A DNA stretch of 44,333 nt from Candidatus Methanoxibalbensis ujae (GTDB lineage Archaea; Halobacteriota; Syntropharchaeia; Alkanophagales; Methanospirareceae): positions 1-44,333 of the forward strand of contig JAOQIN010000010.1 of assembly GCA_026134085.1 (NCBI GenBank). Reading direction: 5' to 3'. Positions 4,913 to 28,461 of the stretch are shown here, one piece after another. Position numbers and translations under genes: made by a program. Within the stretch, counting starts at the first letter, position 1, and each line of letters opens with the position of its first letter. The notes beneath the pieces were generated by a model. It was not told the origin of the DNA and ran no database searches. It worked only from the letters and a program-made list of their open reading frames with translations.

Positions 4913-5024
4913 GGGCGGCAATGAGGAGCAAGGGCGGCGATGAGGAGGCGGAGATACGGAATAAAACAGAAAGTTTTATATTTTATTTTCGTGAAGAGGA
5001 GGCGGATGGAGAGGTGTTTTTCAA

Positions 5025-5633
5025 ATGGAGAAAGGAGAGATTGTGCTTATAGGACTTGTTGTGCTGACGTTCATAGGTTTTGCCGGTGGCGCTGTGATCA
5101 TGCAACAGCAGATGAAGCACATGCCTATGGAGAGCTGCGCTCAGATGTGCCACGAGATGCACGAATATTATGTTTCTTTCATAGAATCGGAACATGCGAA
5201 GGAAATACATGACTGCCATGAGTGCCACGAATCTCATGAGGATATGATAGGTGAAATGCTGATGTATGGCAAGGAGATGGTGAAGCACATGGAAATACAG
5301 TATCATAAGATGCATGGCGGAGAGGTTGAGAAAATAGAGCAGAAGCCGCCTTCCTCTCCAGAAAATGAGGTGTGCATGAAGTGCCACGAGACAGGTGAGA
5401 AAGGAGCGCCAATCGTGTCTGAGGAAATTTCGCCAAACGGCACAACCTGCATCACCTGCCACCTCACCATACCGCATGAGGAGCATCCGATAGGCGAATA
5501 CGGAAAGCCGGACAGCAAATATCGGGGATATGAAAGCCCTGTATATGAGGGGAGAGAGTGCGTAGCATGCCACAGTGATCACTCAATGGTGGTGACAGAA
5601 GACACATGCGTGAGCTGCCACAGGCATTATTAG
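5025..5633 (+). CDS. Membrane-anchored multiheme cytochrome c (6 heme motifs; NapC/NirT/NrfH-like N-terminus)
   Basis: N-terminal TM helix, then CAQMCHEM (CX3CH), CHECH, CMKCH, CITCH, CVACH and CVSCH. TATA-like AAAGTTTTATA at about 4970-4980. Confidence 0.9.
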   Translation: MEKGEIVLIGLVVLTFIGFAGGAVIMQQQMKHMPMESCAQMCHEMHEYYVSFIESEHAKEIHDCHECHESHEDMIGEMLMYGKEMVKHMEIQYHKMHGGEVEKIEQKPPSSPENEVCMKCHETGEKGAPIVSEEISPNGTTCITCHLTIPHEEHPIGEYGKPDSKYRGYESPVYEGRECVACHSDHSMVVTEDTCVSCHRHY

Positions 5634-5681
5634 AGGGAAAAAACAGCAGAAGGAAAAAAACAGCACGCACTGCAGCGGAGA

Positions 5682-6650
5682 TCACAGCAGCCTCGCGTTC
5701 AAAATGCGATAATCGCCGTTCAGACAGCACTTCACAACATCCTTCAAAAACTCCACATTTCTGTGCAAATAAGTGCGCGCTCTCTCATATATGTCATCAA
5801 CGCCCTGCCGCAACGACCTCGCATATTCTCTTATGTATTGCTGCTCGCTCAGATATCCAGCTTTGAACTCCACTGATGCTCTGTGTATCATATCAGAAAT
5901 ACATTTCATCACATATCCGTCAGGCATAACAAACAGAGGAGTGCCGAAAATTTCTATTATCTCATCACATTTTTCAATTTTTTCAATCTTTTTAATTTTT
6001 TCAATCTTTTCAATCAAAAACGCATTTATCGCATATCTCTGCATCCCTCTTGCGATCTTTTCCTCCATCTCCATCACATGAACAGGTGCTGATATCCTCG
6101 GTGAAATCCTTATTATTCCCGCTTTTTCAGCTTTTTCATTTCTTTCGGCTCTTTCAGCTTCATCTCTCGCAATTTGCAGCAGTTCAGCGTAGAGATTTGC
6201 ATATTCATCACTCAGTATGTGAGCATGTGTGTCCTCATGAACGATCCTTATCAGTATGAATCTCGGAACAGACAGGTCATACACCTTATATCTGCGGCGA
6301 AAAAACCCGACCCTCAGGATCTCATAGTTCTCCATCAGAATGAAAGATGTTCCACTTCTGACATCAAACATTGAAAAATATAAGTGTTCAAGATGAGACT
6401 TCACAGTTGTTCTTCCTGCGGAAACTGCATCACTCAAACGCTCACCTATCCATTTTGACGCACTTCTCATTCCTGTTTCCCTTTCAAATTTGAGAACGAA
6501 CTGCTCAATTTCTCCAAGTATATCAAAAAATCTCTCTGCTGATATGTTGTTCATGCTGTTAAATGTGCGGAAGGGCTCTTCGTCGGCACTTTCAATCATC
6601 CTCTCCGCGCTGTCAGTGAGTTTCAGCTTCCAGTGCCTTTTCATTGCCAC
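5682..6650 (-). CDS. Hypothetical protein with HExxH motif (putative zincin metallopeptidase)
   Basis: 322-aa ORF directly downstream of porD; RIVHEDTHAH and a downstream MEEKIA; internal KIE repeat. Confidence 0.6.
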   Translation of the reverse strand: MAMKRHWKLKLTDSAERMIESADEEPFRTFNSMNNISAERFFDILGEIEQFVLKFERETGMRSASKWIGERLSDAVSAGRTTVKSHLEHLYFSMFDVRSGTSFILMENYEILRVGFFRRRYKVYDLSVPRFILIRIVHEDTHAHILSDEYANLYAELLQIARDEAERAERNEKAEKAGIIRISPRISAPVHVMEMEEKIARGMQRYAINAFLIEKIEKIKKIEKIEKCDEIIEIFGTPLFVMPDGYVMKCISDMIHRASVEFKAGYLSEQQYIREYARSLRQGVDDIYERARTYLHRNVEFLKDVVKCCLNGDYRILNARLL

Positions 6651-6694
6651 TGTGAATGCGGGATGCGACGCTGTTGCCTGCGCTGCGATGTGAG

Positions 6695-6982
6695 CTACTC
6701 CTTCTTCTCCTCAATCATTCTGATAACGCCCCTCGGACATTCGTAGGCGCATATGCCGCAGCCCTTGCAGTAATAGAGATTGGCATCAAAATATCCGTCT
6801 TCTGTTCTGTATATGCATCCTTCAGGGCAGAATATGTAGCAGATACCGCACTTTATGCACTTTTCATTGTCTCTGACCGGTACTTCTGAGCGCCAATCAC
6901 CCGTTTTGTATTCTGATGCGCTGCCGGGTTCTTTTACAATTGCTCCAATCTCCACCTCATGCCACTTTATGTCTATCTTCAT
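6695..6982 (-). CDS. porD: 2-oxoacid:ferredoxin oxidoreductase delta subunit (2x[4Fe-4S])
   Basis: YKTGDWRS, CIKCGICYIFCP and YCKGCGICAYECP. Confidence 0.9.
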   Translation of the reverse strand: MKIDIKWHEVEIGAIVKEPGSASEYKTGDWRSEVPVRDNEKCIKCGICYIFCPEGCIYRTEDGYFDANLYYCKGCGICAYECPRGVIRMIEEKKE

Positions 6983-7060
6983 ACTATCTCACCTCCTCTT
7001 ATCTCTTATCTCACTTCCCATTTCTCATTTCTCACTTCTCACTTCTCATTTCCATGTTTC

Positions 7061-7627
7061 CTATTCTCCTCTCTCTCCACTCAACTGCTGAACCCGCACT
7101 TGTGTCTCATCGTATGCCTTTCTCATTGTATCTATGTTTTTTGAGGCGAGTTTTCCGAAGCGCTCCCGCATTTTTTCTTCCAGCGAATTCAATGATACAA
7201 TTCCCGTGGCTTTTGTAAGCGCTCCAGCCATTGCTGTGTTTGTTATAGGGACGCCGAGTATCTCTCTTGCGATGCTTGTAGCATCAACTGTCGCGACTTT
7301 ATGTGCAATTTTCAACTCCTCAGGCTTTTTATTCGTGTTGACAACAGCGGTCCCGTCCTTTTTCAGTCTATCAACAACATCTCCGACGCCGAGCAGCGAT
7401 TCATCAAGGACAATAAGCACATCAGGCTCCAATATCTCAGACCGAATTTTTATGCGATCCTTCTCATCCACACGAACAAACGCGAGAACAGGTGCACCCC
7501 TCCGCTCAGGTCCGAAGGACGGCATTGACTGCGCATGCTTTCCCTCGTAAATCGCCGCATGTGCAACGAGCTCGGCAAGCGTTACGCCACCTTGACCTCC
7601 TCTGCCGTATATGCAAATCTCTATCAT
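7061..7627 (-). CDS. porG: 2-oxoacid:ferredoxin oxidoreductase gamma subunit
   Basis: MIEICIYGRGGQGGVT, SFGPERRGAP and NTAMAGA. Start reassigned to the ATG at 7627. Confidence 0.9.
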   Translation of the reverse strand: MIEICIYGRGGQGGVTLAELVAHAAIYEGKHAQSMPSFGPERRGAPVLAFVRVDEKDRIKIRSEILEPDVLIVLDESLLGVGDVVDRLKKDGTAVVNTNKKPEELKIAHKVATVDATSIAREILGVPITNTAMAGALTKATGIVSLNSLEEKMRERFGKLASKNIDTMRKAYDETQVRVQQLSGERGE

Positions 7628-7855
7628 CAACAGAAAATCCCCATCACAAAATATAACTTGTTTCCCATTTCCTGCACTGCACCACACTCCACGCATCCCA
7701 CTTCATGCTTCATACCTTATACTCTATACCATGCCTCATACCATACTTCACACTTCACAACAATTATATCACACAGCACATCTCACTCATCACTCCTCGC
7801 CCATCGTACATCATTCATCACTCATCCTTCATCTCACTCCTCATCATATGAGCTC

Positions 7856-7887
7856 ACAATCTCAGCAGTTTACAATCTCAGCAGTTT
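7856..7887. repeat. 16-bp tandem duplication spanning the stop of the Cas4-like gene
   Basis: ACAATCTCAGCAGTTT x2, exact. Confidence 0.95.
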
Positions 7888-8715
7888 GGATAACAGTGTT
7901 TCGCCTTTCACATTACAATGCTCGTTGAAAATGCAGAGATGGCAGGGTGCATGATCGCCTTTTTCGGGGAATTTCCCGCTTTTTATTGCTCTCACACGCT
8001 TCAACGCGTGCAGAGCCACAGCTCTGTCCTTTCTTCTTATGACTGTGGCTCTGAAAGAAGCATCTCTGATGTATTCCACAAATCCCCTGCTGACTGTGAT
8101 GTTGTATGATTCCTCTATCAAAAATGCGTAAGCGGCGAGAGATGCCCTGTCGGAAGCCCACACGCCCATTTCAGGGCTTTTTCCGGTGCGGATTATGCAT
8201 GGCACCTTTTCCTCATTGTCTATCTCTATCATCTTGTCAACGCATCCGCTCATTCTCAGCTTTGAGGAGAACATCAGATGTTCTCGTATGAACCCGTGCT
8301 TGATCTCCGTTTTTATAATCTCACTTCTCGCTGATTTCATGATAATCTGCGATCGCTTCATATATTCTATGAAATCTCTGTGTATTTCTCTCAATATGTT
8401 GTCATCTATGCATCTCAAATTGTCACTGTAAACATATCTCAAATCTTCCATAATGCTTTGAGCGAGGTTTTCAATTACCTCTTCCTTCTCTCCACAGTCA
8501 GCCAGTTCCTTCACCGTTTCTGGCAATTTAAATGCGAGCTCTCTCAGAAGCATTTTCTCTGTCATGCGTCTCATGCGAGCTTCCTGCGCTGCAGTGTTCT
8601 CTGATTGCTGCGCTTTAAAATAAAGTATGCGAGGGCAGAGGAAGAAAGTTGAAATATCGGAAACCTTCACCTCACCGCGCATGTCTTTTATTTGTCCGTT
8701 ATTTATTTCTGACAT
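7870..8715 (-). CDS. Solo Cas4/Dna2-like PD-(D/E)xK protein with 4-Cys Fe-S staple
   Basis: N-terminal VSDISTFFLCPR, C-terminal CHLCIFNEHC, central LRMSGCVDK. No CRISPR array or other cas genes nearby. Confidence 0.8.
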   Translation of the reverse strand: MSEINNGQIKDMRGEVKVSDISTFFLCPRILYFKAQQSENTAAQEARMRRMTEKMLLRELAFKLPETVKELADCGEKEEVIENLAQSIMEDLRYVYSDNLRCIDDNILREIHRDFIEYMKRSQIIMKSARSEIIKTEIKHGFIREHLMFSSKLRMSGCVDKMIEIDNEEKVPCIIRTGKSPEMGVWASDRASLAAYAFLIEESYNITVSRGFVEYIRDASFRATVIRRKDRAVALHALKRVRAIKSGKFPEKGDHAPCHLCIFNEHCNVKGETLLSKLLRL

Positions 8716-8762
8716 CTATTTCTATTGGTAAGGAGGAAACAGAGAAGGAGGTGTGGACAAAG

Positions 8763-9503
8763 ATGTTCCGTGCCCGGATAGATGCATCGCTCTTAAAGGA
8801 GTGCGTGGATGCGATCACTGCTGTTGTGGATGAATCACGCCTCAAAATCTCGGATGATGGCTGGCGAGTCCGTGCGGTTGATGCCGCGAATGTGGCACTG
8901 ATAGATTTTGAGCTGAGGAGAGAGGCATTTGATGAATATGAAAATCAGACTGATGAGGAACAGGAAACGGAAATAGGGATTGATTTCTCAAAATTGAGTG
9001 ATATTTTGCGTGTAGGCTGGCGGAAAGGTGACATCACACTGGAATTAAATGACAAATTGCATGTAAAGATGAATGCACTTTCATACACATTATCTCTTAT
9101 AAGTATTGAAACATTGCGAAAGGAGCCAAAATTACCTTCATTGGAGTTTCCAACGAGGGTTGTATTGGATGCTGAAGATTTCAGAAAAGTGATAAAAGTG
9201 GCTGAGAAGATGGGGGATCATATCGTGATGGGCGTTTCCGGCGATGTTTTTTTCATGGAGGCGGAGAGTGAGATGGATTCAATGCGATTTGAGCTGAGGA
9301 GAGAAGAGCTCCTCTCTCTCTCAGGAGATAACGCCCGCAGTATATTTTCGCTTGACTACATTGCTGCGATGAGCCGTGCGATGAATGTGGAGACAGTCAC
9401 GCTTTATCTCGGCACTGATTATCCTCTGAGAATTGAGTTTGAGCTCGCCGACGGCGCAGTTCACATCATGTATCTGCTTGCTCCACGCATAGAATCTGAG
9501 TGA
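8763..9503 (+). CDS. pcn: DNA polymerase sliding clamp PCNA
   Basis: AVDAANVAL, FSLDY, LGTDYP and YLLAPRIE. Start reassigned to the ATG at 8763. Confidence 0.96.
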   Translation: MFRARIDASLLKECVDAITAVVDESRLKISDDGWRVRAVDAANVALIDFELRREAFDEYENQTDEEQETEIGIDFSKLSDILRVGWRKGDITLELNDKLHVKMNALSYTLSLISIETLRKEPKLPSLEFPTRVVLDAEDFRKVIKVAEKMGDHIVMGVSGDVFFMEAESEMDSMRFELRREELLSLSGDNARSIFSLDYIAAMSRAMNVETVTLYLGTDYPLRIEFELADGAVHIMYLLAPRIESE

Positions 9504-22479: not shown

Positions 22480-22515
22480 CATTAATTTGGTTGTGTGGAT
22501 GAGTTAAAAATTCTT

Positions 22516-22568
22516 ATCCTCGCAATCCTCACAATCCTCGCAATCCTCTCAATCCTCACAATCCTCGC
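22516..22568. repeat. 9-bp tandem repeat ATCCTCNCA x6
   Basis: ATCCTCGCA, ACA, GCA, TCA, ACA variants, then ATCCTCGC; just upstream of the tRNA-Gly promoter. Confidence 0.92.
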
Positions 22569-22644
22569 TTGCGCCCGCATCACTGACCGCGGCACCCCTC
22601 ATGCTTTTGAGCTCGGTTGCCATTATGACTTTTGTCAATGACCT

Positions 22645-22686
22645 CCGCCGCATGTCAATACTTCACCGCCGCATGTCAATACTTCA
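22645..22686. repeat. 21-bp tandem duplication spanning the thermosome stop
   Basis: CCGCCGCATGTCAATACTTCA x2, exact. Confidence 0.95.
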
Positions 22687-24466
22687 ACCTGCCGCGCTTT
22701 ATTTTTCTGTGTGCGCGCAGTTTTGCTCTCCGCTCCTTCATTATCCACTCCTTCGTCCTGCCGGCGATTTTGGCCTCAATATCCTCCGCTTCCTTCTCAA
22801 CCTCACTCTTCGCGATATGGAGGTCCTCTATTCTTATCATCTGAATTGCGCCTTCAGTCGCTGCTATGAAAGCCTGCTCCTTGACGACGAGTGGATCAAC
22901 TATTCCCCTCTCAAAAACATCATCCACGATCTCCCCCTCAACTGCCGATATTCCGGCGTATTTCTTTCCTGATGCATGTGCTGCCCGAAGTGCTGTGATC
23001 GTGTCGATCATATCCATGCCGCAGTTCTTCGCGATCGCATTTGGTATGCTCTCAAGCGCATCTGCAAACGCCTCTATGGCGAACTGCTCCTTGCGCGGAA
23101 TGCTCCTCGCATATTTTCTCAGCCTGACAGCGCATTCAACTTCAACCGCACCACCTCCCGGAATCACCCTGGGATCCTCAACACATCTCGCAACAGCATT
23201 CAGCGCACTCCTCACCTCCCCCACAATACCCTCAAGCACTCTATTGGATACCCCTCTTATGAGTATTGCACACGCCTTCTTGTGCGGACAATCCTCAAAA
23301 AAAACATATTTCACACCGCTCAAATCTCGTTGAACAACTTTTCCAGCATATCCCAGCTTATCCTCACTCAATTCATCAGATTTCTTCACTATTTTTGCAC
23401 CAGTAGCGCGCTCCAATCTCTGTAAATCTGTGAATTTCACTCGCTTCATCGCCATTATGCCGTTATCTCTGAAGAGATCAATCGCTTCATCATCAATGCC
23501 CCAACGACAGCACACAACATTCGCACCAGATGCGATTATCGGCTTTATCATGTCCTCAAAAAGCTCTCTGCGCTTTTCGTAGAACGCTTTTATGGCATTC
23601 GGATCTCTTATCTTCAGAGTGAATCCGAGCGCACCGAGTGTCTCGCCTGCTTTGCTGCGTTTCCTCACGAACTCCTCCTTAGGCGCTTTTCTCCCTGTTG
23701 TCCTCTCGGGCTCCCAGTGCTCAATGGGGAAATCAAGCAGTGCGATCCTCGCATTCTCCATCTCAGTGGGAAGGTCATCAAGCACTTCCCTGTCTATGAG
23801 AACGCCATCAAGAAGCCGCGTCTCCTTAACCGCACCGCCCGACTTGGCCTCTATAAGCACATCATCCACATCTATCAGCAGTTCCTCGCCAGCGCCATCA
23901 GCACCATTGCCACAACTGTCGCTTATACGCTTTATCGCTTCGACAACAACCTCAGCAAGCGCGTCCTCAGACCAGTAATCGCTCTTCTTAAGTGCGGTTC
24001 TCGCCACATCCCTCAGAATTCTGTTCTCTCTTATTTCGCTGAATTCAATGCATATATCATCAAGGACATCAAGAACATGATCAAGCGCCATGTTATATCC
24101 GCGTGAAATTGTGTTCTGATGGACGCCCATCGCACGCAGCTCAAATCCATTTCGCACAAGCTCGCCGAGGAGCACCATCATTGTGGCCACGCCGTCACCT
24201 ATGTCGTCGCCGAGTGAAATGCCTGCCGAGATCAGAATGTCAGCAGTTGGATGGTCGTATCTCAATTCCTTCAAAATCGTATATCCGCTGCTTGAGACGA
24301 GGTCAACAACCTCCTCCTTCGTCATATCTCTCGTCAGCATTTTCTTTGAGGCTATCGGCCCGATTATAGACCTGAACATATCAGAGAAAGCCTCACACAC
24401 TATCTTGTTGGCCCACTGAATCTCCTCAGGCGGCACATCACCAGGTGGTAACACATCTTCTATCAT
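22676..24466 (-). CDS. Divergent group II chaperonin (thermosome-like) subunit
   Basis: GYTILKE..HP, IGDG, GANVV, GIDD, ILIRG, PGGGAVE, FADALESIP and GIVDPLVVK. ATP-site motifs are degenerate. Confidence 0.9.
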   Translation of the reverse strand: MIEDVLPPGDVPPEEIQWANKIVCEAFSDMFRSIIGPIASKKMLTRDMTKEEVVDLVSSSGYTILKELRYDHPTADILISAGISLGDDIGDGVATMMVLLGELVRNGFELRAMGVHQNTISRGYNMALDHVLDVLDDICIEFSEIRENRILRDVARTALKKSDYWSEDALAEVVVEAIKRISDSCGNGADGAGEELLIDVDDVLIEAKSGGAVKETRLLDGVLIDREVLDDLPTEMENARIALLDFPIEHWEPERTTGRKAPKEEFVRKRSKAGETLGALGFTLKIRDPNAIKAFYEKRRELFEDMIKPIIASGANVVCCRWGIDDEAIDLFRDNGIMAMKRVKFTDLQRLERATGAKIVKKSDELSEDKLGYAGKVVQRDLSGVKYVFFEDCPHKKACAILIRGVSNRVLEGIVGEVRSALNAVARCVEDPRVIPGGGAVEVECAVRLRKYARSIPRKEQFAIEAFADALESIPNAIAKNCGMDMIDTITALRAAHASGKKYAGISAVEGEIVDDVFERGIVDPLVVKEQAFIAATEGAIQMIRIEDLHIAKSEVEKEAEDIEAKIAGRTKEWIMKERRAKLRAHRKIKRGRLKY

Positions 24467-24548
24467 ATCTTCATCCCCCTCCTTCCATCTCCTTTCTTCC
24501 CGCTTCCTTTGTGCTGCAGAACGGCAGCTGCAACGCGCAACGCTGCCT

Positions 24549-25343
24549 TCACCTCAAATAAATTTTTCTTATCCTGTGCGCCTCTTCAACTGCGATATCA
24601 ATCATGCGTTCAAAAGTGTTCTCGCTCAGAACGCCCCTTCCGCTTTTCTGTATGCAGGATATGTCGCCGTCTTCTGTTGAAGTCACGATAAGTCTTGCAT
24701 CAGCCGCACTTTCCTCAAACATGTTTGGATCAACGAGAATATTGCCATCGATCTCAACTGTTGTGACAGCAACGGGCGTGTATTTGACCATCAGATTATC
24801 AACCTTCGGATTCACCTCACGCGGCGAGAATCCATGTCTCTCATAGGGGATTCTTGTGTTCATGAGCGCTGCAATAGCGCCGAGGGCAGATGCGTCAACG
24901 AGGTTTCCGTCGTCATCAAGCACATGGATGTCTATGAAGATCATCCAGACCTTTTCTCCCTCCTCTATGCACAGCGATTCCACATCCAGTGCATGCGAAC
25001 CTCTTATCCCCCTGTCAACAATCCTCGCAAGCTCAACGCTGTTCTCATCAGGCGGTCCTGGCTCAAATTCAGGCGATGCGAGGGGGACAAACTCCGCATT
25101 CGTGATGATGACACCTTCATTCGGAATGTCTGGAAAGGGCTCTCCAATCTCCATCTTAACACCGACGAGAACCTGAGTGTTCCCTATTTTCACCCTCGCA
25201 GACCCCTCTGCTCTCTTCACAACACCCTTCTCAACGATTATCTCACGATATTCCAGGAATCTTCTGCCGTCCATACGCTTCCCGCTTCTTATGAGATCGC
25301 AGACATAGTCACGACGCATCTCCTCAGCAATGTCGCTCCCCAT
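24549..25343 (-). CDS. rrp42: Exosome complex component Rrp42
   Basis: RMDGR, AEGSARVKIG, FEPGPPDE and DIHVLDDDGN; operon position. Confidence 0.96.
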   Translation of the reverse strand: MGSDIAEEMRRDYVCDLIRSGKRMDGRRFLEYREIIVEKGVVKRAEGSARVKIGNTQVLVGVKMEIGEPFPDIPNEGVIITNAEFVPLASPEFEPGPPDENSVELARIVDRGIRGSHALDVESLCIEEGEKVWMIFIDIHVLDDDGNLVDASALGAIAALMNTRIPYERHGFSPREVNPKVDNLMVKYTPVAVTTVEIDGNILVDPNMFEESAADARLIVTSTEDGDISCIQKSGRGVLSENTFERMIDIAVEEAHRIRKIYLR

Positions 25344-25363
25344 TTGTATCACCTCACAGTCAC

Positions 25364-25399
25364 AGCACACACATCATTCAAAGCACACACATCATTCAA
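25364..25399. repeat. 18-bp tandem duplication spanning the rrp41 stop
   Basis: AGCACACACATCATTCAA x2, exact. Confidence 0.95.
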
Positions 25400-26117
25400 T
25401 CTCCTCACTGTATTTGCTTATCAAAGCCTCACGCTGCATCTGATATATTTTCCTGCAGGCGTTTTTTGCGATTTCAAGTCCTTTTTGTATCTCTTCTCTC
25501 GTCATTTTTCCATCCATCTGTATCATTGTTATTGTGTTTGTCTTCGCTATCATTGCAACTGGCATATCTGCGTCGCCGTAATTGTCCTCAATTGCGTTTA
25601 AATCGAGAACGATCTCTCCATCCACCTTTCCAACGGCTATCGCAGACACGAGACCCCTCATGGGAATTCCCGCGTCAGCGAGCGCCACGGAAGCTGCATT
25701 TATGCCCGCAGTTCTTGTTCCAGCATCAGACTGCAGCACCTCCACGAATATATCAATCGTGGTTCTCGGATAGAACTCGGTCATTATCACAGGTTCAAGT
25801 GCCTCCCTGCTCACCTTTGATATCTCAATGCTCCTCCTGTCAGGTCCGGGACGCTTGCGCTCATCAACAGAAAAAGGCGCCATGTTGTATCTGTATTGTA
25901 TTATAGCCCTCTTCGCATCCTGATAATGACGGGGATGCAGCTCCCTCGGACCATAAACTGCTGCAATCACCTTGTTGTCTCCAAGCTCAAAATAACATGA
26001 GCCATCCGCTCTCTTAAGAACGCCGACCTCTATCCTTATGGGGCGCATCTCATCAAATGCCCTTCCATCCACACGCCTCCCATCCTTTATGAGAGGCTGT
26101 TCCACTTTCCTCTTCAT
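25392..26117 (-). CDS. rrp41: Exosome complex exonuclease Rrp41
   Basis: RVDGR, YGPRE, YNMAPFS, PDRRSIEIS, DAGTR and ADMPVA. Confidence 0.97.
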   Translation of the reverse strand: MKRKVEQPLIKDGRRVDGRAFDEMRPIRIEVGVLKRADGSCYFELGDNKVIAAVYGPRELHPRHYQDAKRAIIQYRYNMAPFSVDERKRPGPDRRSIEISKVSREALEPVIMTEFYPRTTIDIFVEVLQSDAGTRTAGINAASVALADAGIPMRGLVSAIAVGKVDGEIVLDLNAIEDNYGDADMPVAMIAKTNTITMIQMDGKMTREEIQKGLEIAKNACRKIYQMQREALISKYSEEIE

Positions 26118-26139
26118 CCCTCATCACACCCACGCCAGC

Positions 26140-26217
26140 TCCGACACACCCGACACTCCAGACAACCAGCAACTCCAGCAGCACCAGCAACTCCAGCAAC
26201 CCACAACCACAACACAC
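26140..26217. repeat. CA-rich degenerate tandem repeats (CCGACAC, CCAGCAACT)
   Basis: Repeated 9-mers between rrp4 and rrp41. Confidence 0.75.
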
Positions 26218-26227
26218 GCTCCCCGTT

Positions 26228-26953
26228 TCATTCATTTCCGCCCTCCCCTTCGTTTTCTGCTGTTGCGGAAGATGTTGTGAGGATTTTGCGCTTCCGCTGT
26301 TTGATGAGAGCATCAAGCATCGCCGCAACTCTGTCTGTGAGACCGGATGTGTGCGCCTCATTCGCTATCATGAGAATAGCCTCAGAAACCACATTCACAG
26401 CGTTCTCATCTCCTTTTATCCATATCCTTCCATTTTTCGCTATGAATATAAAACATCCACTCCTCTCCTTAAGCAGTTTTATCATTGAACCATGCCTTCC
26501 TATAATGCGAGGTATTTTTGTATGAGGTATTTCAATTATTCTGTCTCCTCTCTTTATGCGAAATTCCTTCATCAATGTCAGCTCAATCCTCATTGAAACA
26601 TCAATATTCCTGACCTTGGCCACTATCACATCGCCAAGATTTAGATATTCGTTCATTTTGCCAAACTCTATTCGTTCATCATCTGACACCTCAAGCACAT
26701 GCAGAAGCGCCTTGTAGGGGGAGGCAATTTCAACTATCCAGAAGGGAAACGATATGTCAATGATGCTGCCTATGACAACATCGCCACGACGGGGCACATA
26801 TTTTCCTTTGAAAGGAACCACCTTTATCTCATCCTTCTCGTCAAGAACTCCATATCTCTGCGCATAAACACAGTTGCTGAAAATATATGTTCCCTCTCCC
26901 GCTCTTTTAACATCTTTTGAAATAAAATCTCCCGGAACAACAATTCTATACAT
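26228..26953 (-). CDS. rrp4: Exosome RNA-binding protein Rrp4
   Basis: IVVPGD, YVPRRGDVVIG, KH motif IIGRHGSM, NGRIW and EAHTSGLTD. Confidence 0.95.
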   Translation of the reverse strand: MYRIVVPGDFISKDVKRAGEGTYIFSNCVYAQRYGVLDEKDEIKVVPFKGKYVPRRGDVVIGSIIDISFPFWIVEIASPYKALLHVLEVSDDERIEFGKMNEYLNLGDVIVAKVRNIDVSMRIELTLMKEFRIKRGDRIIEIPHTKIPRIIGRHGSMIKLLKERSGCFIFIAKNGRIWIKGDENAVNVVSEAILMIANEAHTSGLTDRVAAMLDALIKQRKRKILTTSSATAENEGEGGNE

Positions 26954-26966
26954 GGAAATCCCTCCT

Positions 26967-27695
26967 CTATTTCAATATCCTGGTCTCAACTTCTCCCCTT
27001 GTTATCTCATTCAGTAATGCAAAAAGCTCATCTTTCATCCCGGCAGGCACACGGAGAATCGCGATAAAAGAGCCATCAGGCTGCCATTCCTCCTTTATAA
27101 TCTCATAATTCCTCTTTATCTCGTATATCCTTCCCGTGTATGCAGCGGGAATCTTCACCGCAATCTCATTCGTGTGAACTTTTATGGGCAATATGGGCCT
27201 GAGCGCATTTATCGCATCCTTAACGAGTGCGTCAATGCTCTTCATCGCATCTATGTGAAACTTGGCCTCCTTCAACGCGATCTCAATTCTCGTGGGAGGA
27301 TGGGGAGTGTTCGTCTGGGGATTAACGCATATGCGTGATATGCGATCTATCACCGCCCTTCTTTTTTCCTCAGTGATCCTCCTGCGCTGTTCAGTCGTGA
27401 GTTGAATCTCTCCCTCCTTCAATATGCGAAGAGCTATCTCCCTCACATCTGTCGTCCCGAAGACCGCTCTGAGATCATCCTCTCTGGCTCTCTCGCCTTT
27501 TGATGCGTCTTCAAATATCTCCTCAACCGCCAGAATCTCGCTTATCTCACCTATCTCTCCAGTCCCAGATTCCGCATTCTTTCCTCTTCTTCCTCTGACT
27601 CTGACATTCTCCGCGCCATAGGGGTCAACAAGAACCTCAAAAACCTTCTTTCCCTTCCTGAACCTCGCAACAACAGCATCCTCAAGCCTCACCAT
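26967..27695 (-). CDS. Ribosome maturation factor SBDS/Sdo1
   Basis: FEVLVDP, GEIQLTTEQRR and NPQTNTPHPPTRIE. Confidence 0.96.
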   Translation of the reverse strand: MVRLEDAVVARFRKGKKVFEVLVDPYGAENVRVRGRRGKNAESGTGEIGEISEILAVEEIFEDASKGERAREDDLRAVFGTTDVREIALRILKEGEIQLTTEQRRRITEEKRRAVIDRISRICVNPQTNTPHPPTRIEIALKEAKFHIDAMKSIDALVKDAINALRPILPIKVHTNEIAVKIPAAYTGRIYEIKRNYEIIKEEWQPDGSFIAILRVPAGMKDELFALLNEITRGEVETRILK

Positions 27696-27717
27696 ATCCC
27701 TTCACTTCCGGCGCTGC

Positions 27718-28461
27718 CTATTCGCTTCTTTCGCTGTCCTGCTGCTCCCTCCTCACACGCTCAACATATCGCTCAACCTCTTCATTGCTCAGTATCCTGA
27801 ACTTCTCCTTGGAGAGATCAGCGATGCCTATATCAACATTCATCGCCGAAGCACCTCCCTCAGACACCCTGAAGAGCGCTTTCAGGCCCAGATGGATCGC
27901 ATCATCGCACGTCATCTGCATGTCATATTCGCTCTCCAGCGCCTCAATGACGGAGTTCCTGCCCGCACCTATGGCCGTGGCCTTGTATTCAAGCAGAGCG
28001 CCACTTGGATCTGTCTCAAACAGATAGCATTCTCCCTCATACACACCTGCAAGCAGTAACGCAGTTCCAAAAGGGCGCAAACCTCCTATTTGCGTGTAAA
28101 TCTGCTTGAAATCACATATTTTCTTGGCCAGTGTCGCAACATCTATCGGCTCATCATATATTATGCGATTTATCTGTGCTTCCAACCTGCCTTTATCTAT
28201 TAAAACACGAGCATCAGCAACCAAACCTGATGTCACAGCTCCTATGTGCTCATCAATGAGAAATATCTTCTCAAGCGACCTGACCTCAAGCAGTTTCGAT
28301 GCAATTCTCTTGTCAGCAAGCAGCACAACGCCGTCACTCGCCTTTATCCCGATCGCCGTAGTCCCTCGCTTCACAGCTTCCCTCGCATACTCCACCTGAA
28401 ACAACCGCCCATCAGGGCTGAACACTGTTATAGCACGGTCATATCCCATTTGCGGAATCAT
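27718..28461 (-). CDS. psmA: Proteasome alpha subunit
   Basis: [25 protein letters not shown]. Confidence 0.98.

Follow-up and report, generated by a model that had tools for sequence, protein, structure and literature searches.

How methyl-coenzyme M reductase (MCR) and its alkane-activating relatives, the alkyl-coenzyme M reductases (ACRs), are assembled and activated is an open question. As stated in part of a 2022 review, no MCR assembly protein besides McrD has been found (PMC9081873), and passages of a study on activation place McrC and component A2 in an ATP-driven activation complex, McrC and Mmp7 carrying L-cluster-like Fe-S centres (PMC12176620). Among chaperonin-like proteins, BBS6 and BBS12 are described, in the section cited, as adaptors between a canonical chaperonin and one client complex (PMC5534436). 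Here we examine a divergent chaperonin gene in a 44,333-nucleotide stretch of DNA from the archaeon Candidatus Methanoxibalbensis ujae (contig JAOQIN010000010.1 of assembly GCA_026134085.1, positions 1 to 44,333 of the forward strand; this whole stretch is called the window below). The gene occupies 22676..24466 on the minus strand (it reads 24466->22676), a strand not given in the earlier note on this DNA, and encodes a protein of 596 amino acids (aa), P0001. Judging from sequence comparisons, P0001 may be a chaperonin subunit deficient in ATP hydrolysis that confers specificity for the activation or maturation of MCR/ACR, which we put forward, tentatively, as the best explanation.

P0001 matches the Pfam family Cpn60_TCP1 (PF00118) with 429 bits (E 2e-128) and is homologous to thermosomes at full length, through the equatorial, intermediate and apical domains. 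The GDG, PGGG and KEQ(L/F)A motifs are common to both, and the lid (helical protrusion) region aligns with the thermosome lid, a 25-column insert aside. Thermosome models score the protein at 411-426 bits vs. at most 73 for GroEL models; with respect to the model cut-offs it falls below TIGR02339 (411 vs. 671) and NF041082 (426 vs. 450) and just above NF041083 (415 vs. 400). The Pfam match, the thermosome models and the alignment thus bear out the earlier assignment as a full-length group II chaperonin paralog. Orthology to CCT1-8 was not found, all eight CCT models lying far below cut-off and below the thermosome scores in a comparison by model scores. According to tblastn the genome has exactly two other chaperonins, both with canonical motifs and 37% and 35% identical to P0001, and the database names of close relatives are Methanophagales, ANME-1 (anaerobic methanotrophic archaea, group 1) and Methanospirareceae.

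When P0001 is aligned to the two canonical thermosomes of the genome and to the solved chains of Mm-cpn, the motif changes previously read from the sequence (IGPIA, VSSSG, GDGVAT, and VGEVRSA with Ser420) are all recovered. Residue counts given here cover 94 family proteins, about three quarters of them ANME-1-like and 92 of them full-length. The gene and its nucleotide-site features are the following:

22676..24466, minus strand: gene for a divergent group II chaperonin, the third thermosome paralog in this genome (Pfam, alignment, family trees).
24350..24364, minus strand: IGPIA, aa 35-39, replacing LGPKG; Pro in 91/91 and Gly in 90/91 of the covering family members.
24284..24298, minus strand: VSSSG, aa 57-61, replacing ITNDG; an acid at 58-61 in 0/94 family sequences (3 not covering).
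24182..24199, minus strand: GDGVAT, aa 90-95, replacing GDGTTT; Asp91 and Gly92 in 92/92, first Thr changed to Ile/Val in 91/92.
23987..23989, minus strand: Lys160, family-specific; Lys in 89/94, Thr in the canonical copies; the nucleotide-sensing loop is one residue shorter.
23204..23224, minus strand: VGEVRSA, aa 415-421, replacing ERALNDA of the canonical copies; Ser420 at the catalytic Asp position.

Both catalytic aspartates are gone in 94/94 family sequences. The Asp position of TNDG, Ser60 in P0001, is occupied by Asn (79), Ser (5), Lys (5), His (1), Thr (1) or a gap (3), and the position equivalent to Mm-cpn D386 by Ser (87) or Asn (7). Pro37, Asp91, Gly92, Gly437-Gly438 and an acid at 524 are invariant or nearly so; Pro37, Asp91, Gly437-438 and the acid at 524 we take, by analogy with thermosome and GroEL structures, to be the adenine, Mg and ribose contacts. 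The family proteins probably still bind Mg-nucleotide, and ATP hydrolysis is likely to have been lost or to have become inefficient. In the cited part of the Mm-cpn work the D386A protein binds ATP without hydrolysing it; as the single loss of this residue stops hydrolysis and not binding there, binding without hydrolysis is likely for the family as well (PMC5019054). What stands of the earlier description of an ATPase-dead protein is the loss of both aspartates and, probably, a hydrolysis deficiency. Two conserved residues had been overlooked in it: the Lys at 160 and, as a candidate for a compensating acid, position 417, one helical turn before the lost Asp, which is acidic in 92/94 family sequences (Glu 72, Asp 20) and Ala/Ser in canonical copies.

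Orthologs at 54-78% identity were found in 24/24 of the same-family genomes first searched. A profile built from 27 members, some of them from the same 79 class genomes in which it was then used, separates the family (at least 610 bits; one 382-aa contig-end piece 514) from canonical copies (at most 492 bits). Among 173 chaperonins the family is one clade (support 0.99) with P0123, its deepest member, as sister (1.0), P0291 being another member; a second, quick maximum-likelihood tree gives the family a support of 99, with members ordered like their host families. The phylogeny proposed as a check thus finds the family monophyletic. The nonsynonymous to synonymous rate ratio (dN/dS, Nei-Gojobori), another proposed check, is 0.04-0.17 in nine family pairs, with dS near saturation in four of the pairs; the canonical copies, compared in three of these pairs of genomes, give 0.05-0.15. 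The ratio indicates purifying selection and no decay, and the family genes are open frames, single copy across the class. By these comparisons the P0001 family is a lineage-specific, vertically inherited thermosome paralog. No description of it was found in the literature on ANME-1/thermosome, MCR/chaperonin and Methanophagales, where supplementary tables of ANME-1 genomics and proteomics could list the gene; the family is apparently undescribed, and as a type archaeal pseudo-thermosome paralogs are already known.

The distribution of the gene follows that of MCR and ACR within the class Syntropharchaeia, sampled here with 79 genomes in families f1 (the ANME-1 family) to f6. It is present in this genome and in 61 of 65 f1 relatives; two of the four misses have contig-end fragments, and the other two genomes are 75% and 82% complete. 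It also occurs in f2 (2/2), f3 (4/4) and f5 (3/3), all ACR-bearing, and was found neither in f4 (0/3) nor in f6 (0/1), that is, in 9/10 ACR-bearing class members and in 0/3 MCR-less ones. Family f4 is the only one of the class without mcrA (0/3), and the two chaperonins of its best genome (90% complete) are both canonical. All families that have the gene also have mcrA or acrA, and f4 has neither; some incomplete genomes carry the gene without an assembled mcrA.

Gene order provides the second line of evidence. In f3 the order is cfbC, mcrC, chaperonin, a protein with eight Cys, A2: mcrC is directly upstream in 4/4 loci, cfbC precedes it in the 3/3 loci long enough, and A2 lies two genes downstream in two, contig ends limiting this count. 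Outside the class, a 401-genome sample of the phylum, with three candidates scored per genome, gave G396, a member of another class, as the sole family-level match among 334 genomes, of which G396 and one other have this ACR type; of the five next-best genomes, the three examined proved canonical. The G396 ortholog is 67% identical to P0123, and its genome has two divergent mcrA genes. The chaperonin gene there is directly behind the component A2 gene, between A2 and cfbC: a C-terminal chaperonin piece opens another contig and is directly followed by cfbC, markers 15, 5, 6, 7, 17 and 3, an ACR operon and mcrC. The other ACR operon and marker 8 lie on a third contig, at whose end stands an N-terminal piece of what is in all likelihood this A2 gene; how the three contigs are ordered is inferred. 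In the class of G396 the gene occurs in 1/96 genomes and was not found in the eight that carry canonical MCR; G376 (95% complete), the one further ACR genome of that class, has its orthologous A2 interrupted by a contig end at the place where the chaperonin stands in G396. Transfer of divergent MCR between distant lineages has been proposed in a preprint whose main text mentions no chaperonins (10.1101/390617). Altogether 60 ortholog loci were examined, and in 55 of them the upstream flank reached 900 nt or more. In 3/3 genomes of one ANME-1 genus (L034, L036, L249) nifB lies about 130 nt upstream on the same strand, and in G008 A2 is 1.7 kb away.

These observations suggest the following mechanism. 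P0001 would fold as a chaperonin subunit, bind Mg-nucleotide and hydrolyse ATP inefficiently, and would act together with the canonical alpha/beta thermosomes, which are ATPase-active, either as a minority member of their rings or as a BBS6/12-like adaptor. Partnership with canonical thermosome subunits is rather probable. Of the non-catalytic hetero-ring member considered in the earlier note, a conserved, probably hydrolysis-deficient paralog beside two canonical copies stands, and it could be such a minority subunit. Client specificity would be supplied by the altered N-terminal helix, the lid and the tail. An MCR/ACR-related client is, by a little, the probable case, and it would most likely be found in the maturation/activation machinery: McrC, A2, the marker proteins and CfbC of the ACR/ANME-1 lineage. 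A client in this machinery would fit the retention of the gene after the swap from ACR to MCR better than the catalytic subunits would.

Several observations weigh against an MCR/ACR-dedicated role. Only about two independent events, a single loss and a single transfer, underlie the distribution profile, and hitchhiking may explain the linkage to the island. In 50/55 Syntropharchaeia loci outside f3, with G008 and the three nifB cases as the exceptions already named, the flank examined has neither an MCR-related gene nor nifB, and the commonest neighbours in the 60 loci are a ClC channel (18/60) and ncsA (17/60). In the searches made, the family was not found in the eight canonical-MCR genomes, in the methanogen families of the phylum sample or in the class of G085 (5/5 genomes without it; G085 has a canonical MCR and one ACR, and one other tested member has MCR), and the ACR-bearing G030 (84% complete, two ACRs) and G376 (95%) gave no match. 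The other archaeal clusters returned by the search often include thermosome paralogs whose sites are degenerate, and Glu417 could restore catalysis. According to the part of the ANME-1c study cited here, ANME-1 exchanged its ACRs for a transferred MCR (PMC9894754), and the ANME-1 A2 forms a separate clade; the chaperonin gene was nevertheless retained. In the passages cited, an ANME-1 MCR assembled with all three subunits in Methanococcus maripaludis, a host without the gene (PMC9584954), so that core folding is not strictly dependent on it.

Plain replacement of McrD by the chaperonin was rejected, because McrD-like genes coexist with the family in this genome and nine other class members (10/79). 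The genome has an operon mcrB, mcrD-like, mcrG, mcrA (G000:C47 ~4985-9468; L246, L138:1300-1692), and McrD matches occur in just 2/66 ANME-1-family genomes; an mcrD-like gene within the mcr operon is reported for ANME-1c in the portion of the study cited (PMC9894754).

A broader version of the proposed role takes in further paralogs. Besides the P0001 family, the divergent chaperonin clades B, C and E, with a support of 100% for each, are present in the ACR-bearing relatives (L228-L240, L067, L068, L082, L083; f2, f3, f5, f6). Clades B and C retain both catalytic aspartates, and clade E is mostly without the D386 equivalent; C and E are in tandem in f3, f5 and f6. Clade C is present in 8/10 ACR-bearing class members and in neither the 66 ANME-1-family nor the three f4 genomes. 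In G396 a C-like chaperonin follows mcrC directly, and in G030 clade B stands tail to tail with A2. A joint origin of the P0001 family (clade D) with B, C and E has a support of 0.955 in one tree and becomes an open fork in the quick tree once unrelated long branches are added. P0001 could be a dedicated assembly factor for the MCR/ACR activation machinery of ANME-1 and alkane-oxidising archaea, as the hydrolysis-dead member of four specialised chaperonins (B, C, D and E) that travel with ACR islands, ANME-1 having kept only the P0001 subunit after the ACR-to-MCR swap; we regard this as possible and somewhat doubtful.

Other features of ACR clusters and of A2 genes were seen in these genomes. 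In G029 (L233:3340-13368) an ACR operon precedes, in this order, an A2-like ATPase, a 196-aa gene and a divergent chaperonin (TCDG, GDGATK, no D386 equivalent) outside clades B-E. The eight-Cys protein has 128-138 aa and eight conserved Cys in the ACR clusters of f3 and G396 (L064:3610-4023, L056:7655-8065, L201:13070-13453); it has no Pfam or NCBIfam match, atlas scores only below 0.9 and no tblastn match in the genome of the window. G005, of the ANME-1 family, has two tandem component A2 genes followed by mcrC (L196:5014-8879), and ACR-bearing relatives have 2-4 A2 paralogs. Separately, P0121 and P0122, of about 1050 aa each, have two chaperonin-length matches each and are possibly tandem thermosome fusions.

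The strongest alternative to the MCR/ACR-directed subunit is a general low-ATPase subunit of a hetero-thermosome, similar to CCT6/CCT8 and with ordinary cytosolic clients, for which the MCR/ACR linkage would be hitchhiking on the island. The ring-forming region appears canonical, a convergent canonical thermosome gene lies within 0.5-3.9 kb in 8/60 loci, and degenerate thermosome paralogs are common in unrelated archaeal clusters. CCT rings, as described in the part of the study cited, also assemble and work with ATPase-deficient subunits (PMC5413064). The gene was, however, lost in precisely the family without MCR, and its one occurrence found outside the class lies within an ACR island; a housekeeping subunit is not expected to show both, and this alternative is unlikely, if far from negligible.

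The lid insert bears on whether P0001 enters a ring. The coordinates of the insert and of the C-terminal tail are as follows:

23651..23716, minus strand: lid insert, aa 251-272 (the 22-mer quoted earlier, net charge +4); 25 alignment columns vs. canonical copies (alignment).
22679..22741, minus strand: C-terminal tail, family-conserved only in its last residues, the polybasic stretch being local.

The insert of about 25 aa and the basic C-terminus claimed for P0001 are confirmed, with 25 columns and a net charge of +10 over the last 22 residues. The insert is about 25 aa long in the ANME-1 family, about 9 in f2, about 6 in f5 and missing in f3. At the C-terminus G-[RKI]-[LIV]-[KRNE]-Y is conserved in 90/92 full-length members, and a tail net charge of at least +8 is reached by only two of the 92, P0001 and its closest relative. 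A proteasome gate-opening HbYX tail was considered and is unsupported, as the ends vary (KY, KYK, KYR, KYM, longer tails). With approximate borders, the C-terminal equatorial region has 44 canonical vs. 5 family-specific conserved positions, and the N-terminal equatorial region 24 vs. 21.

A stand-alone, ATP-independent holdase, monomeric or homo-oligomeric and never part of canonical rings, would account for a 25-residue lid insert that should crowd a closed ring. Persistence of the gene where clade C was not found (0/66 ANME-1-family genomes) is in keeping with such a protein, and chaperonin-like BBS proteins are reported, in the section cited, not to form CCT-like rings (PMC5534436). Since the C-terminal equatorial region is conserved as in canonical copies and basal members have little or no lid insert, a holdase is improbable.

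An active ATPase with a rewired site, Glu417 serving as catalytic base and Lys160 as phosphate sensor, would explain why 417 is acidic in 92/94 and 160 is Lys in 89/94 sequences, both unlike canonical copies, and why the remainder of the pocket is under selection. What speaks against it is that Glu and Asp interchange freely at 417 (72 and 20), that intact genes have Gly or Gln there (4/30 genome loci), and that neither the other catalytic Asp nor the first Thr of GDGTTT survives in the family. In GroEL, Arg395, three residues before Asp398, pairs with Asp155, and by homology 417 would presumably face the intermediate-domain loop, which makes a Lys160-Glu417 salt bridge the simpler reading. 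The free exchange of Glu and Asp and the Gly or Gln of intact genes likewise favour a salt bridge over a catalytic base, and a rewired active site is, if anything, slightly more improbable than the holdase.

The position of the gene in the window had suggested a chaperonin that binds RNA and is linked to exosome or proteasome function. The features concerned are:

24467..24548, minus strand: spacer to rrp42, 82 nt, purine-rich, no A/T run.
24549..28461, minus strand: psmA-sbds-rrp4-rrp41-rrp42 operon, context only; the adjacency is not kept in relatives.

The gene does follow rrp42 by 82 nt on the same strand, as claimed, and the gap is without an A/T-rich promoter-like run. A purine-rich spacer of this kind makes read-through from the exosome operon likely in this genome, where the adjacency is a local rearrangement. 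A sigma-70 promoter scan gave 2 sites vs. 2.4 expected, with a model that does not cover archaeal promoters. None of rrp42, rrp41, rrp4, sbds and psmA occurs in the 60 ortholog loci, that of the closest relative G009 included, so that relatives are unlinked to the exosome operon, an outcome named beforehand as refuting the link. The gene after rrp42 varies in 5/5 relatives (purF, TFE twice, alba, trm5), and the expectation that rpl37ae, rpoP or prefoldin normally follows is borne out in 0/5. P0001 does have a basic tail and a mildly basic insert; the whole protein is net acidic (-15), and a polybasic RNA-binding tail as a family trait, proposed earlier, was rejected, being strongly basic in just 2/92. 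A coupling to exosome or proteasome is highly improbable. A decaying pseudogene, to which the lost catalytic motifs might point, was rejected on the selection data: with open frames in single copy across the class, dN/dS of 0.04-0.17 and a tree ordered like the host families, it has practically no chance of being correct.

Two further features of the window are recorded here. Between the chaperonin stop and a tRNA-Gly gene there is a 9-nt tandem repeat of about five units, together with a perfect 21-nt duplication that overlaps the stop codon (22507-22577, 22645-22686), and a stand-alone Cas4-like (DUF83) gene adjoins the genes for PCNA and the primase large subunit (7870-8715, minus strand).

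To the previous description of the gene this analysis adds the ACR island in a second class, the loss in the family without MCR, the cases that speak against the link and the acidic residue at 417. A conserved chaperonin-like factor in ACR islands offers a defined candidate for co-expression in M. maripaludis or M. acetivorans and a target for pull-downs from ANME-1. If the proposed role were true, P0001 would be an archaeal pseudo-chaperonin dedicated to one client system, in parallel to BBS6/12. In the broader version with four clades, a CCT-like division of labour would have been built for one enzyme system, and the lack of P0001 in expression hosts could then help to explain the difficulty of producing active ANME-1 MCR and ACRs. 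Should the MCR link fail, P0001 would be one more degenerate thermosome paralog, of a type common in archaeal metagenomes.

Compared with known systems, P0001 is closest in sequence to the archaeal thermosomes (Mm-cpn of M. maripaludis; T. acidophilum alpha/beta, 1A6D), with common fold motifs and 35-37% identity to the copies of its own genome. It differs from them in that both catalytic aspartates and the first Thr of GDGTTT are replaced, a lid insert is present, and the protein ends in GRxKY and not in a GGM/acidic tail; in the genomes searched, its family is also restricted to MCR/ACR-bearing lineages. With CCT6 and CCT8 it would share a feature described in the part of the work cited, a weak or dispensable ATPase in a paralog beside active subunits (PMC5413064). 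P0001 is not a CCT ortholog, thermosome models scoring it far higher than CCT models do; CCT/TRiC subunits have fixed ring positions, and P0001 is a candidate ring member. Gene clusters and, partly, distribution liken the P0001 family to the MCR accessory factors, namely McrD, the McrC-Mmp3-Mmp7-Mmp17-A2 complex and CfbC. These factors differ, as no chaperonin is named, in the passages cited, for the activation complex (PMC12176620) or for MCR assembly (PMC9081873). The closest functional analogy, a tentative one, is with BBS6 and BBS12, which combine, as described in the section cited, a chaperonin fold with a degenerate ATP-hydrolysis motif and insertions (PMC5534436); they differ in being eukaryotic, CCT8-derived and much more diverged, and we claim no homology with them beyond the shared family.

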